DNA from: Octopus vulgaris
Lineage: Eukaryota
DNA length: 64,000 bases
NCBI GenBank assembly: GCA_951406725.2
Contig: OX597814.1
Location: 187,116,001-187,180,000 of the forward strand
Direction of reading: 5' to 3'
Position 1 is the first letter of the stretch. Every line of letters begins with the position of its first letter. Position numbers and translations under genes: made by a program. This document shows positions 39,236 to 55,360 of this stretch, one piece after another. Under the pieces are notes generated by a model. It did not search any database. It was not told the DNA's origin and saw nothing but the letters and a program-made list of their open reading frames with translations.

Positions 39236-42200
39236 TCATCATTATCATTTAACATCCGTTTTCCATGCTGGCATGGGTTGGACAGTTTGACTGAGGTCTG
39301 GAGAGTCAGCAGTTGCACCAGACTCCAATGTTTCTATAGCTTGATGCCCTTCCTAACACCAGCCACTCTGAGAGTGTAGTGGTGCTTTTTTATGTGCCAC
39401 TGGCAGAGGAGCCAGTCAGGCAAGCCTGGCATTGATCATGTTCGGATAGTACTTTTGGCCACAATCAGTTGGTGCTTTTTATGTGCCACTAGCATGAGAG
39501 CCAGTCAAGGAGTATGAACATTGGCCACATTCAGATGGTACTTTTTATGTACCACAGGCATGGGAGCCAGTCAGGCAGACCTGACATCGATTATATTTGG
39601 ATGGTGCTTTTTATGTGCCACTGGTACGGGAGCCAGTCAGGGGGCACTGGTCACAGCAATGATATTGGTTTTACTTGACTCAACAGGTCTTCTTAAGCAT
39701 ATCATATCACATGAAGCATCAAGGGTACTCTTAACTGTGACAGACATGCATGGCTGTGATCTCACTTTAGTTGCTAGGTCTTCTCACTCACAGCATATTT
39801 CCAAAGATCTCGGTCTCCAGTCATTGCCTCTGTGAGGCCCAATATTTGAAGGTCATGCTTTACCACCTCATCCCATCTCTTCTTGGGTCTACCTCTTCCA
39901 CAGGTTACTTCCACAGTTAGGGAGTGGCACTTCCTCACACAGCTGTCCTCATCCACATGTAACACCTGACCATACTAGTGCAGTCGTCTCTCTTGCACAC
40001 CACATTTAATGCTTCTTATACCTAACTTTTCTCTCAGTCTGCTTATACTCTGTCATGTATGCACACTGATATTACACATCCAACGGATCATACTAGCTTC
40101 ATTTCTTTCAAGCATACATATGTCCTCAGCAGTCATGGCCCATGTTTCACTGCTGTGTAGCATGGCATTCCACACATGTGCATCATACAATCTACCTTTC
40201 ATCCTAAGCGAGAGGCCCTTTGTCGCCAGCAGAGGTAGGAGCTCTCTGAACTTTGTCCAGGCTATTCTTATTCTAGCCACTACACTCTCAGAGCAACCAG
40301 CTATTAGAGTATAGAGAAGCTTCCAGGGACATCTGGTCTTAAATTCCTCTGTTATTGCCTGATGAATAAGACGGGGCTGAGGACTGATCTTTGGTGGACC
40401 CCTATCCCTATCCGGAATTCTTCACTATACTCTTTGCCAACCCTCACCTTAATGACAGCATTCCTGTACAGGGCTTGTACAGCTCTTACCAACCACTATC
40501 CCTAGTTTCTGCATTGACCACTAGATAAGGGATTGGGGGACCCTGTCAAAAGCTTTCTCCAAGTCAACAAAAAGCCAAGTACAGAGATTTATATTTGGCA
40601 AGATATTTCTCCTGCAGTTGCCTTACCAGAAACATAGCATCAGTGGTGCTTCTGCCTGGCAGAAAACCAAACTGCATCTCATCTAGGCTAACTCTCTCTC
40701 TAATTAGTTGGGCTATGACCTTCTCCATAACTTTCATCACCTGATCCAATAATTTGATACCCATATAGTTATTTCTATCTAAAGCATCACCTTTACCTTT
40801 GTAGTAGTTAACTATGGTGCTGCTACACCAAGTCATTGGGTATGACTCTTTCATGAACTACCTGATTTATGATGCAGGTGACTAGACCATAACCCACACC
40901 ACCTAATATTTTAAGCATCTCAGCAGTGATTCCTGATGGGCCAGGTGCTTTCCCTGTCTTCATATCCTTAACTGCTTTATCTACCAGGTCAATTCGGTAG
41001 CTGGTCCTTCAGTTGGGTCACCTCCTCCCATTCCTTCTCCACATTTATCAGTCTTTCATAATGGCATCTCCAAGCCTTTTTCTTTGCAGAATCATTAAAT
41101 GCAAGAGCACCATCATCCATGTGGACACATTTCTCTCCTATGACATCACAGTGTTCTCTGACACACTGTCTTGCAATCCGAAATACTTCAGTTCTTTGGT
41201 CCTCACGTTGCTGAACATTAGCAAAGTTCTTTTCAGCTACTCCCTTAGCTATATATACCTATTTCTTTATTACCCACAAGGGGCTAAACACAGAGGGAAC
41301 AAACAAGGACAGACATAGGTATTAAGTCGATTACATCGACCCCAGTGCGTAACTGGTACTTAATTTATCGACCCTGAAAGGATGAAAGGCAAAGTCGACC
41401 TCGGTGGAATTTGAACTCACAATGTAACGCAGACGAAATACCGCTAAGCATTTCGCTCAGCGTGCTAACGTTTCTGCCAGCTCGCCTTAGCTATATATAC
41501 CTGTCTCCTAGCTTCTCTTTTGCCTATCTCATACATTCCCCTGCTACCCTTACTCCTCGAGGCCTTCCAAGCCTGTTTCTTTGTTCTAATGGCCCTGTCT
41601 ACAGTATTGTTCCACCACCATGTTACCCTAGGTCTGGAAGGGACTTTGCACCAGCCACAGATTTGGTCTGTGGCACTCAGCAAGCTGTCTTGCAGGAATT
41701 CCCAGCTGCCTTCTATATCACAGGAGTGTAGTTCCTCCTCCCTATCATCAAATTTCTCGGTAAGGACATCCCTAAATCTCTGACCATGTGAAGGGTTCTT
41801 AAGCTTCCAAGTCCTTCTTTTCCAGATTGGTCTTTTTTGTATCCTTCTGGCCTTGAGTCTAAAGTCACTAATAACTAGTCTGTGTTGAGGGTACATTCTT
41901 CACTAAGGACGGTCTTTGTATTTAAGAGCAACCATGCATCCCGCTGTCTGGTGAGAATGAAATCAATCTGGCTAGTAGAGTCACCTGATTGATAGGTTAT
42001 CAGGTGGCTAGCTGGCTTCCTGAAGTTGGTGTTGCAGATCAATAGGTTATTTGCATAGTAGAACTCCAGGAGCCTAGTTCCCTCTTCATTTCTGGTACCA
42101 ACTCTATGGCCACCCCCATGTACACTATGGAAGATACCAGGTTGCTTGCTGTCCAACATGCCCATTAAAATTTCCAGCCACAAAGATGAGATCATTGTCA

Positions 42201-45379: not shown

Positions 45380-48130
45380 TTTCAAATCACAAGTTCATGA
45401 TGCAGCATCTGCCACTTTGGGCAACAAGTCAAAGAAAGTAGCAGATTGGTTTATTGGCAATGACCTGGAAATTATTAATCTTCCTCGTGAAAAGCAACAA
45501 CTAAGCAAAAAAAATTCTGAGAAAATCAAATAATCCTAACCAAGACATGAGATATTAATCTCCTGAATTAAAAATTCAGTGAAATCTCTGAAAAATGAAA
45601 GTCAAGTGGTGGTACCAAAAAGCAAAAGATGCACGAGATGCTATAAACTGCAAAGATACAAAAGCCTTCTTTTCTTTTGTAAAAGAGGTGTTTAGCTTTA
45701 GCTCAATATTTATAGCTCCAGAGAGGTTTGTTGATGGCCAACAGTTCTTTACTGATGTCACCTTCATACAGAAAAAATGGGTACAGCACTATACTGATCT
45801 TCTCAATAGGCAATCAAATATAAATATGAGAATAATTGAGGAAATGGTAAACCTTCTTGCTGTTGAAGAAATGTCTGTTTGGCTAACACAAGATGATATT
45901 GCATCAGCTGTAAAGAAGCTCAATAATAAAGCTCTGGGTATTGATAGCTTAAGCTCAGATATTTTAAAGTTTGGTGGGGGAAAGAACTACCGAACTATTT
46001 CATTATTTACTTATTTCTTTACTGCCCACAAGGGGCCACACACAGAGGAGACAAACAAGGACAGACAAACGGATTAAGTCGATTATATCGACCCCAGTGC
46101 ATAACTGGTACTTATTTAATCGACCTTGAAAGGATGAAAGGCAAAGTCGACCTTGGCGGAATTTGAACTCAGAATGTAGTGGCAGATGAAATACCACTAA
46201 GCATTTCGTCCGGTGTGCTAATGTTTCTGCCAGATCACTGCCTTAAATACTTGTATACTATTAGAAGGAAGAGGAGGTGCCTCATGACTAAGTTGATGCT
46301 ATTCTCGTTTCCCTACATAAATCTGGTCCTAAAGACTTATGTGGAAATTTCGGTGGAATATCTTTATTATCAGTTGTTGGAAAAGTGCTTCCCCATGTTC
46401 TTGAAGAGTGCCAGAGTCACAATGCGGCTTCTACACTTCTTCAAGGACAGTTGATATGCTCTTTATTATCTAGTAGTGACAAGAGAAATGCAACAAGCAA
46501 AACAAATCATTATTTTGTGGATCTTTTGATACGATTAATAGGAATGCACTGCAGCTGATGCTGAAGAAATTTGGCTGTCCTACAAAGTTTGTGAATATAG
46601 CCATGGCTCTCAATAAGGATATGATAGCCTGCATTAACTTTTGTAGAACTCTGTCGGAACCATTTCTGGTTGAAAATGGAGTTGAGCTAGGTGATCTCAA
46701 AGTACTGACACTCTCTCCATATATTTTGTAGCGATGCTTTCAAGTGCATTTGCATCTTCAACAGATGGCATCGATATACGACACCACTCTTCAGGTAATG
46801 TGTTTAATCTGACAAGAATAAACTTTAAAATCCAATGTCTTTACTTCTCTACTATGTGATCTTTCATATGCAGATGACTGCAACCTAGTAAGTCACATTG
46901 AGCAAAGCTTACAGAATCTAATTTGTGCATTTGATTCTTCATGTGATATATTTGGTCTCAGAATTAATTTGAAAAAAACTGTTGTAATGCCCCTGGAGAA
47001 TAATTCATCACACCTCAGATACTGGAGAAGGATAGTACAATGCTTAAAGTGATGACTTCTTTTGAATACTTGGGTAGCATGGTACATGTTGATGTTTATC
47101 ATCCTCGTTTAATGTCCAATTTCCATGCTAGCTAGCATGGGTTGGATAATTTGACTGAGGTCTAGTGAACCAGATGGCTGCACCAGACTCCAATCTAATG
47201 GAAACCTAAATATAGAAATCACTTCTTGTATTCAAAGGGCAGCAAAAGCCTTTGGCAGCCTACAATGTAAAGTCTGGTCAAAACGCCTTAACAAATCTGA
47301 TACTAGGATCATGGTATACGTCTATTTGTTCTTTCTACATTGTTGTATTCTTCTGAATCTTGGACAATATACATGTGTCATGAAAAAATGTTGGAAAGAT
47401 TTCACCAGAAATGTCTCCACCACATACTCAGAATAAGCTAGCCCTCACTCATTCCTGATACTGAAGTTAGAATCACATCAATCTAAGCCATGCTTATTAG
47501 GAATCAACTATGCTGGACAGGCCATCTCATCTACATGAATGCTTTGTAGTGAACTTAGGTTGGGAAAAAGAAAAAATTGTAAACCAGAGAAAAGATACAA
47601 AGACTTTAAAATCAAATTCGAAATGCCTTAAATTATGTTACAAAAGTCTTGAACAACTTGCAGCAGAGCTATGATTTGGAGCAATGTTAAAGATTTTGAA
47701 CTTAACAGTTATGCATGCTGAAATGAAAAGAAAATTTTGTAACAATGAGATTAATATGATTAGCATTGCAAGAGTTTCTTATTCCTTCTTTAAATGTTCT
47801 TTATGCAAAAAAGTATGCATATCTTACACTGGTATAAGATCTCACCATGCCCATGTCGGTAAGGCATTCATGAACTATTAGAATTTCATTTTCAATGCAA
47901 CGTCTGTCAAAAAAACCTGCAAGTCAGATGGTGGGGTGGGGTGAAGTAGCTCTTGAACATTCATAATAAACAAATGGAAAATGGATCCCTTGCTGAAATG
48001 AGTTATTGCTGCATTATGTGTGATCAGCTCTTCAAATGCCTTTCAGATCTCAAAAGTAAATTTAAGATCTGCTGCTAGTAAAGAGCAATTATATGTACAA
48101 GAAGAGAGCTTTGCAAGGAGCAGACAGCCA
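45380..48130 (+). mobile_element. Decayed RTE (BovB-like) LINE ORF with C-terminal zinc-finger remnants; SINE B inserted at 46004-46245(-)
   Basis: WWYQKA, AVKKLNNKALGIDSLSSDILKFGG, FDTINRNAL..MLKKFGCP.KFV, SYADDC, IQRAAKAFGSL; FKCSLCKKVCISYTGIRSH and FQCNVCQKTCKS. Confidence 0.75.
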
Positions 48131-52890: not shown

Positions 52891-53306
52891 AAAAAGAAGT
52901 TTGAACACACCACTATGTAAGATAAATTTTAAATTTTCTGAGAGATTTTACATGTTTCAGTTCTTCTTGAGAAAACGAACCTTATCAAAAATATATATTT
53001 TTGATAAGGTTCGTTTTTTTCAAGAAGAACCAAAACAGGTAAAATCATCATCATCATCATCACCGTTTAGCATCCACTTTCCATGCTAGTATGGGTTGGA
53101 CGGTTCAACTGGGGTCTGGGAAGCCAGAAGGCTGCACCAGGCCCAGTTTGATCTGGCAATGTTTCTACGGCTGGATGCCCTTCCTAATGCCAACCACTCC
53201 ATGAGTGTAGTGGGTGCTTTTTCTCTAAGAAAATTAAAATTTATTTTATATACTGGCATTTTCAAGCTTTGTTTTTATAATATATACCCACTCGTATGCC
53301 ACCGAC

Positions 53307-53357
<51 letters not shown>

Positions 53358-53686
53358 ATATATATACATATATATATACGATATAGTGTATATTTATACA
53401 CATAAGGGATCCACACTTAGGGTGAGATTCAACATGTTTTTCATTTCCAAATTTATTCCTGTCGAATTTTATCCATTATTTTTGTGGTTCTCTAATGTGT
53501 TGAATCTCACCCTAAGTGTGGATTCCTTATGTGTATAAATAAACACTATATCGTATAACTAATATATAGTCTTCTTGACTAATTTTTTTGGATGTTAGAC
53601 CACTGGAAATGTAAATTTTAATTGAATATTTTAAATTTAATTAAATTCCATTTCCCTTTTGATATGATATATATATATATATATAT

Positions 53687-54479
53687 AGCTGTTTCGCCTC
53701 ATACCGAAGGAAAATGGAAAAAACGGTCTTTGACTGCCATTTCTAATTCCTTCGGTATGAGGCGAAACAGCTTGCTGCTAGCCAACTCATTTTCTTTACT
53801 ATATACTGAACCTTACAAAGGTCCTGACAATTAATTTGTCGTATTTACATACCGAATTTTACCGGTAAATAATTGTTGGTTACATGAAAAACCACAGGAA
53901 AATTATTTACCATTTTTATTGCATTACCATGTGGATTCCTCATTCCATTACGATTACCCAGAAGGCGCGCATGGCAGAATTTTGGAGGGAAAATTTACGT
54001 TCCCAGTCGTTACTTGGTTTTAACATCTGCGCACTTCCCCCCACTATCTGATGTCGCTGGGTCAGAAGTGAGGGCTGGTGGCATTTGATAAAGCTATCGA
54101 ATATAGCGCTGATGACGGAATTCAAACTCCCTTTTTTTATATGTTTGTGATCCAGAAACACGGTGTTCGCTATTAACGGTAAGTGACTGTCTCCGTGTAT
54201 TTGCCACTCCGATTTTGTGTATGTGAGCCGCAAGGGCCTTCGTTTTTGGAATCTCCACTTATAGAAATGGAAAAAACGGTCTTTGACTGCCATTTCTAAT
54301 TCCTTCGGTATGAGGCGAAACAGCTTGCTGCTAGCCAACTCATTTTCTTTACTATATACTGAACCTTACAAAGGTCCTGACAATTAATTTGTCGTATTTA
54401 CATACCGAATTTTACCGGTAAATAATTGTTGGTTACATGAAAAACCACAGGAAAATTATTTACCATTTTTATTGCATTA
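53687..54479 (+). mobile_element. Young retrozyme / Penelope-pLTR-like element: 1.4 copies of a 553-bp unit plus a 26-bp inverted 5' piece, inside (TA)n
   Basis: 53712-53926 equals 54265-54479 (215 bp, identical by eye); 53687-53712 is the reverse complement of 53747-53772; hammerhead at 54103-54173. Confidence 0.8.
54103..54173 (+). ncRNA. Type I hammerhead ribozyme
   Basis: ATAGCG-CTGATGA-C-GGA..CAAAC(loop)GTTTG..TCC-A-GAAA-CACGGTG-TT-CGCTAT; stem I ATAGCG/CGCTAT, stem III ACA/TGT, GUU site. Confidence 0.7.
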
Positions 54480-55360
54480 TATATATATATATATATATCC
54501 AAATTAAGAATTGATGTATAAAAATTCAAAGAATAAATCCACAGATCCACATTAATTAAGAACTTAATAAGGGATCATTAAACTCCAAAACATTATTACA
54601 TTGTAGTAAGTCAGAATGGGACAAACTTGCATGTATATACATAATCTGCTAAAATGATCTTTAAGAGCAACATATTTAGCCTTAAAGCTGAAATACATAA
54701 ATTTCACATATAGCACACATCTTAATTGTTCTCAACAGGTATTTCCTTACGATAAATACCACTAAATGTTTAATTAGATATTTATGGTACATAATTAATT
54801 AATTTAAATTAAATTGAATTAAACACTATGTTTACTCAAATCATCACAAATGTCGTGTTATGTTAATCATTTCTCTTTTTCTCAATGTTTCTGTTTGTCT
54901 TGATGTATTTAAACTAGTAATGGTTTTCTGATTAACCTAACACAACATTCCTAATCATTTTGGTAAACACAGTTTTTGAATTAATTTAATTTAATTTAAT
55001 TATGTATCATAATCATGTAATTATACATTTGGTGGTGTTTATCTGAATGAAACACCTGTTGATCACAATTATAGTGTGAACTATATGTAAAATTTAAACT
55101 TTTCTACTAAAAATATATATTATACTGTGTATGTATATATATATATATAAATCATCATCATCGTCGTTTAACGTCCGCTTTCCATGCTAGCATGGGTTGG
55201 ACGATTTGACTGAGGACTGGCGAACCACATGGCTGCACCAGGCTCCAATCTTGATCTAGCAGAGTTTCTACAGCTAGATGCCCTTTCCTAACGCCAACCA
55301 CCTCGAGAGTGTAGTGGGTGCTTTTACGTGTATGTATATATATAATATATATATATTATA

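Follow-up and report, generated by a model that had tools for sequence, protein, structure and literature searches.

The element at 53687-54479 of the 64,000-nucleotide octopus stretch analysed here (the window) is best read, with a probability of roughly three in four, as one young copy of a 553-bp unit that is non-coding, exists in many copies and moves as a non-autonomous Penelope-type retroelement, an animal non-LTR retrozyme, with a borrowed Penelope-like reverse transcriptase (RT) and endonuclease. Most of the architecture given in the original prediction is borne out. The two 215-bp direct repeats (53712-53926 and 54265-54479, + strand), described as identical with a 553-bp period, match exactly at that distance, with identity stopping at both edges; the first, which resembles a pseudo-LTR, opens at a predicted 31-nt hairpin. 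The 26-bp inverted copy at the 5' junction is also exact: 53687-53712 (- strand) is the reverse complement of 53747-53772 (unit positions 36-61), lies head-to-head at the junction, has one nucleotide in common with the direct copy and could pair perfectly with 53747-53772 as a hairpin. TA runs bound the insert on both sides, as reported: a left (AT)10 target run at 53667-53686, which doubles as the tail of a neighbouring AT-rich insertion, and a right run at 54478-54498, the first two nucleotides of which are common with the 3' end of the element, a target-site duplication being unreadable. Runs of at least eight TA units cover 670 of the 64,000 bases of the window, in which one insertion was examined, and BLAST of the unit on the window found no second copy. 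The copy spans 1.39 units of 553 bp, with a single hammerhead. The unit has a GC content of 0.41, and the many intact CpGs remarked on earlier number 23 (observed/expected 1.0, against 0.28 for the whole window); since the repeats are exact as well, the copy appears to be young.

No recognisable coding capacity had been noticed in the unit, and the longest frame, a stop-free run of 141 codons on the minus strand (53940-54365), indeed matched no Pfam family at E≤5. An open reading frame for RT plus GIY-YIG, as found in autonomous Penelope elements, is absent from the unit. A GIY-YIG domain was found in none of the 111 window frames scanned with Pfam (of 163, the rest being mostly repeat-like); the same scan returned two weak RVT_1 matches, below the curated cut-off, in decayed fragments of LINE-type RT at 40567-40857 (-) and 46822-47049 (+). 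Patterns for the Pol III A and B boxes gave no match in the element. It is very improbable that the element is instead TRIM-like or another LTR-type non-autonomous element with ordinary 209-bp LTRs running from the TG at 54268 to the CA at 54476. The TG and CA do sit 3 nt inside the repeat ends, which also show a partial terminal inverted match, but the exact repeat extends 3 nt past TG and CA on both sides, and inspection by eye found neither a primer-binding site (PBS) nor a polypurine tract (PPT) beside the repeats on either strand, tRNA genes likewise numbering zero. Moreover, the hammerhead is type I rather than the type III of LTR retrozymes and lies outside the repeats; together with a 5' inversion, it is no LTR hallmark as far as the consulted sections of PMC7229834 go.

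The 338-nt single-copy part of the unit (53927-54264, + strand) is predicted by folding to form a closed rod, the tip of which is the hammerhead. Motif search, folding and family variants point to a type I hammerhead at 54095-54181 (+ strand), with a core of CUGAUGA (54109-54115), GAAA (54155-54158) and GUU with H17 at 54167. Stem I has 6 bp (54103-54108/54168-54173) and is extended, past an internal loop, by an outer helix of 5 bp, and 39 nt separate the core halves, in keeping with the long stem II first described. Stem III, ACA-cgg-UGU (54158-54166), is palindromic, with a single unpaired base in the middle, and the predicted cut falls after 54167. This is the sole motif match on both strands of the window, and only 2 of 20,000 dinucleotide-shuffled versions of the unit gave it (stem I of at least 6, stem III of at least 3, stem II unscored), or 24 of 20,000 with a looser filter. 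The hammerhead had been called complete, and its core, 6-bp stem I and GUU site stand; yet stem II has C·A, a mismatch, at its base (54116/54154), and the Rfam comparison suggested at the time gave no hammerhead among 28 matches at E≤5, which were mostly microRNA-hairpin models and all under gathering scores. The filter of Perreault 2011 would also reject C·A at the stem II base. Because this form of hammerhead escapes both Rfam and strict filters, similar families may be under-counted.

A natural mismatch at the same position, U·U, occurs in the axolotl HHR_Amex2 (PMC7229834). Alternatively, C54116 may represent the additional nucleotide following A9 that, according to the available part of PMC4209133, is typical of Penelope hammerheads; an extra A would then be left before G12. 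The C·A mismatch and the frequent U4C variants weaken the expectation that the predicted ribozyme is active, and folding places the active hammerhead fold 4 kcal/mol above the local minimum. Stem III is predicted at -9.3 kcal/mol as a self-duplex and at +2.1 kcal/mol as a hairpin; a palindromic, unstable stem III has been described for animal hammerheads that act as dimers (PMC4209133), and we infer that, in multimers, dimers would be the main cleaving form of the predicted hammerhead. The present copy, having a single hammerhead, cannot release a unit-length monomer and has probably reached a dead end. Another stretch resembling a hammerhead, near 54305-54330, was dismissed on inspection by eye, its core being off CUGANGA at two places, with no U16.1 or stem I. 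It contains GAAA and, behind it, an imperfect palindrome; part of the stretch falls in the most conserved block, and it overlaps with the inverted segment. A degenerate hammerhead pattern had no match in viral contigs; three metagenome loci that matched it (GC 0.67-0.69) were dismissed as chance, their likeness being limited to the pattern, and a 20-nt block of the unit had no match in metagenomes.

The expectation that the unit should occur in many copies held: the family comprises, roughly, hundreds of copies or more. Part of the unit (39-67% of its sampled words) occurs in 20 of 24 listed public runs, from 10 studies with 4 organism labels; the best run has 0.67 of these words, and one run may be the window's own source. 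None of these runs is on record as RNA, which is no evidence about expression. The unit is covered by contigs of four runs (X4, X2, X11 and X10), which were mapped on 53927-54690 with 54471-54509 left out. Set against low-depth flank contigs, the median summed depth of the unit was 834-fold in X4, 818-fold in X2 and 497-fold in X11, about 500-830 times in three runs; summed contig depth is no copy number and gives the order of magnitude only. In X10, guessed to be RNA, 43 contigs fell on the unit and none on unique flank, and the ratio of element to flank-repeat depth was only 47, against 8-18 in the other runs, which speaks neither for nor against expression. The contigs, which cannot reveal RNA ends, strand, circles or arrays, showed no joints and no piles of starts or ends over the mapped interval. 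Several of the family variants listed sit, judging from their sequence, at hammerhead positions tolerant of change, among them N7 (54113), 54116, 54121 in stem II and indels of loop II (54128-54133). In the middle of the stem III palindrome, at 54162, C replaces G as the majority letter in each of the four runs, and 1-nt and 3-nt deletions there, among the variants listed, give perfect palindromes. As the listed stem III variants keep or perfect the palindrome, selection for a dimeric ribozyme is favoured. U4C accounts for a depth of 1226 of 24044 in X4 (5%) and 433 of 917 in X11 (47%), a frequency at which many copies may be impaired.

These data also bear on a mundane explanation, in which the duplication is local, produced by slippage or assembly, and the hammerhead arose by chance. 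Assembly can create identical repeats artificially, none of the contigs listed spans 53927-54690, and Rfam recognised no hammerhead; on the other hand, the rarity of the motif among shuffles, family variants that respect it, and the sharp borders that the inversion and TA runs give to the insert leave this explanation scarcely credible.

The depth profile is relevant to another alternative, in which the fixed unit is the whole 768-bp repeat-internal-repeat arrangement. Such a unit would be a miniature Penelope whose pseudo-LTRs are fixed and which is transcribed in full and retroposed uncut, its hammerhead silent or vestigial in single copies. The repeat begins exactly at the hairpin, the 338-nt part is predicted to be a closed domain, and in Adineta the pseudo-LTRs alone mobilised unrelated inserts, according to the available part of PMC3846280. 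On average, the 215-bp part is covered 1.7-4.6 times as deeply as the 338-bp part, but without two conserved blocks the ratios become 0.95, 1.06, 1.35 and 2.39, with no steady value of 2. In addition, a diverged relative remains homologous upstream of 54274 (loose ends, compared by eye), and the stem III variants that keep the palindrome suggest selection on multimers. We consider a fixed 768-bp unit rather unlikely. The two blocks, 54265-54316 and 54395-54446 in the 3' direct repeat, are the deepest of the 215-bp part and are common to diverged relatives; a predicted 9-bp helix (54304-54312/54401-54409) joins them, and on this folding model they are a candidate recognition structure. At 54378-54394, all four runs contain a diverged relative with a different sequence before 54395, which may form a short hairpin (loose ends, by eye).

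Taken as a non-autonomous retroelement, the unit fits a class that has been described. Animal non-LTR retrozymes have been published with a proposed Penelope origin (PMC7229834; review PMC7761336; Li, Clavereau & Pollet 2026, bioRxiv 10.64898/2026.07.22.740005; these and the other papers are cited for the sections available). Similar to them, the octopus unit is non-coding and arranged head-to-tail, has a type I hammerhead and a GC content under 50%, belongs to a multi-copy family and lacks PBS and PPT, and its predicted circle is self-paired (PMC7229834). Its 553 bp fall within the unit lengths of 51-972 bp given by Li et al. and exceed the 170-400 nt of the invertebrate units of Cervera & de la Peña 2020 (PMC7229834). 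It differs in its 39-nt stem II region with a C·A base, where axolotl HHR_Amex2 is likewise mismatched, and in its 5' inversion and (TA)n target, neither of which is met in the consulted descriptions of retrozymes (PMC7229834; bioRxiv 10.64898/2026.07.22.740005). With 1.39 units and one hammerhead, the copy is not 'active' under the two-hammerhead rule of Li et al., in whose hands one of nine Xenopus retrozyme dimers cleaved in vitro. The original prediction could not place the element in a described family. This still holds for the sequence family, as a literature search, in which the Repbase and Dfam libraries were outside the scope, found no cephalopod retrozyme; the class itself is described. 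Judged by sequence, the unit is likely an undescribed retrozyme family within that published class.

The ends of the insertion resemble those of Penelope-like elements, which are inserted as partial tandems next to an inverted 5' copy and prefer (TA)n (PMC8557442). In this one copy, a partial tandem makes pseudo-LTRs, the inverted 5' copy is head-to-head and the target is TA. The dimensions resemble those of Pen2a_Av of Adineta, where two pseudo-LTRs of 218 bp are accompanied by an inverted copy that is 37 bp shorter (PMC3846280); here the repeats are 215 bp and the inversion begins 35 nt in. Palindromes open some Adineta pseudo-LTRs, for which self-priming has been proposed (PMC3846280), and the octopus element likewise combines a partial tandem with a hairpin at the 5' end of the repeat and an AT-rich target (PMC3846280; PMC11167929). 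Its hammerhead shares with those of Penelope elements the long stem II, the palindromic stem III and, on the reading of C54116 given above, the extra nucleotide after A9 (PMC4209133). The differences are that the inversion is just 26 bp, that the unit lacks the RT/GIY-YIG frame of autonomous elements, that an extra A precedes G12, that no 30-40 bp tail was identified, and that the hammerhead lies outside the repeated part, whereas Penelope hammerheads typically reside inside pseudo-LTRs (PMC8557442).

As for a possible partner, Penelope elements are plentiful in coleoid genomes (PMC8967140), and Octopus Naiads are listed with (TA)n as their target (PMC8557442 supplement). The (TA)n target, partial tandems and 5' inversions are shared with the Naiad and Chlamys elements, and the non-autonomous MRC1 also makes pseudo-LTRs and head-to-tail copies (PMC8557442). 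The core halves of some Naiads lie 35-50 nt apart, comparable to the 39 nt of the octopus unit; Naiads are described there as lacking canonical hammerheads, unlike the predicted type I hammerhead here, and those of cephalopods as long inactive, unlike this young copy (PMC8557442, in part). The 3' ends of Naiad_Obim and Naiad_Ovul carry core halves around short hairpins ('HHR_half_core'; PMC8557442 supplement), unrelated to the unit by sequence, and such stretches may be permuted or variant hammerheads. Compared by eye, the three available Octopus Naiad 3' ends (Naiad_Obim, Naiad_Ovul and Naiad_Omin) bear no resemblance to the unit, and nine short unit motifs had no match in the accessible part of the PMC8557442 supplement, where broken lines can hide matches.

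The predicted RNA structure has a strand preference. The + strand circle folds at -155.3 kcal/mol, compared with -126.2 ± 7.0 for shuffles (0 of 100 as low), and the minus-strand circle at -136.9 kcal/mol. The linear unit has a z score of -3.5, with -0.2 to -2.6 for eight control stretches; the 338-nt part gives -4.1 on the + strand and -1.6 on the - strand, and the 215-nt part -2.8 and -3.6, respectively (20-25 shuffles each). The folding of the + strand and the hammerhead on it point to + strand RNA.

The proposed pathway would run as follows. Tandem source loci would be transcribed from the + strand, and a Penelope-like protein acting in trans would bind the structured 215-nt domain and nick (TA)n. 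Synthesis of cDNA would start internally at the position of 54479, copy one unit and run on for 215 nt into a second round, on a template that might be the next unit of a multimer, a hammerhead-released circle or, after a jump back, the same RNA. The cDNA would stop at the hairpin that opens the repeat, and a self-primed fold-back would close the 5' end, leaving the 26-bp inversion; in multimers, the predicted hammerhead would cleave dimerically. An exact fold-back at the native hairpin predicts unit position 32 and the inversion starts at 36-37, so a 5-nt slip is required and the fold-back stays inferential; the hairpin predicted for the cDNA has low stability (-6.0 kcal/mol for 70 nt). The 3' end of the element lies 312 nt downstream of the predicted cut, which argues for internal initiation on an uncut multimer or a circle. 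A precedent is the anole Penelope-type protein PAc, which nicks AT-rich DNA and begins cDNA inside the RNA; the purified protein initiates internally on uncut RNA, the RNA used is mostly unprocessed, and hammerhead mutants leave insertion unchanged (PMC11167929). If initiation is internal on unprocessed RNA, a linear tandem transcript yields the same 1.4-mer, and a circle appears unnecessary, both the circle and the linear-multimer routes being compatible with the element.

A 553-nt circular template, made by dimeric hammerhead cleavage and ligation and read 1.39 times round, is accordingly a possible but tentative account of the second round. Circles have been demonstrated for coral, mussel and axolotl retrozymes (PMC7229834), and the + strand circle folds well. 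Both repeats of the window copy have C at 53788 and 54341, where the contigs have T at a depth of 4509 of 4509 (X4), 26212 of 26212 (X2), 3143 of 3146 (X11) and 203 of 203 (X10); this weakly fits one template read twice, but C may simply be the fixed letter of the subfamily or species to which the window belongs. Furthermore, it is enough in vitro for cDNA synthesis to begin internally on linear, unprocessed RNA (PMC11167929). The original proposal of an RNA template copied by a Penelope-type RT thus fares well in that a young multi-copy hammerhead element with Penelope-type ends is present, and less well in that copying round a circle is only one of two adequate routes.

Penelope mobilisation of animal retrozymes has been proposed from co-occurrence and from pseudo-LTR homology in Xenopus (bioRxiv 10.64898/2026.07.22.740005). 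A young invertebrate family with the insertion hallmarks of Penelope elements adds structural support, and it offers a simple way to tell a circle from an uncut multimer as template, although the picture of the class is unchanged by the octopus unit. A bolder version, which we hold to be unlikely, is that a Penelope-like enzyme directed at (TA)n, possibly a Naiad without a hammerhead, now mobilises a cephalopod retrozyme family in the form of a 553-nt circle, the circle being read 1.39 times and closed off by a Penelope-type fold-back, with an atypical, dimer-only hammerhead that present models overlook. If true, it would tie retrozyme circles to the Penelope machinery by insertion structure, beyond co-occurrence.

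The surroundings of the element are rich in other insertions. Directly upstream, at 53375-53665, lies an AT-rich insertion with a head-to-head inversion (60-bp arms, 97% identical, 63 nt apart) beside a TA run, and the hammerhead element sits in its TA tail. By eye, this insertion and the Naiad_Obim consensus, in the part available, end in the same 11 nt, which may be chance. In the right flank, 54573-54680 belongs to another repeat family, with a depth of about 770-2400 in X4 and X2, and 54698-55096 is a MITE-like element with 121-bp arms at 78%. Two copies of a SINE-like repeat, about 85% alike, occupy 53050-53221 and 55151-55325, and we take this repeat to be typical of Octopus genomes.
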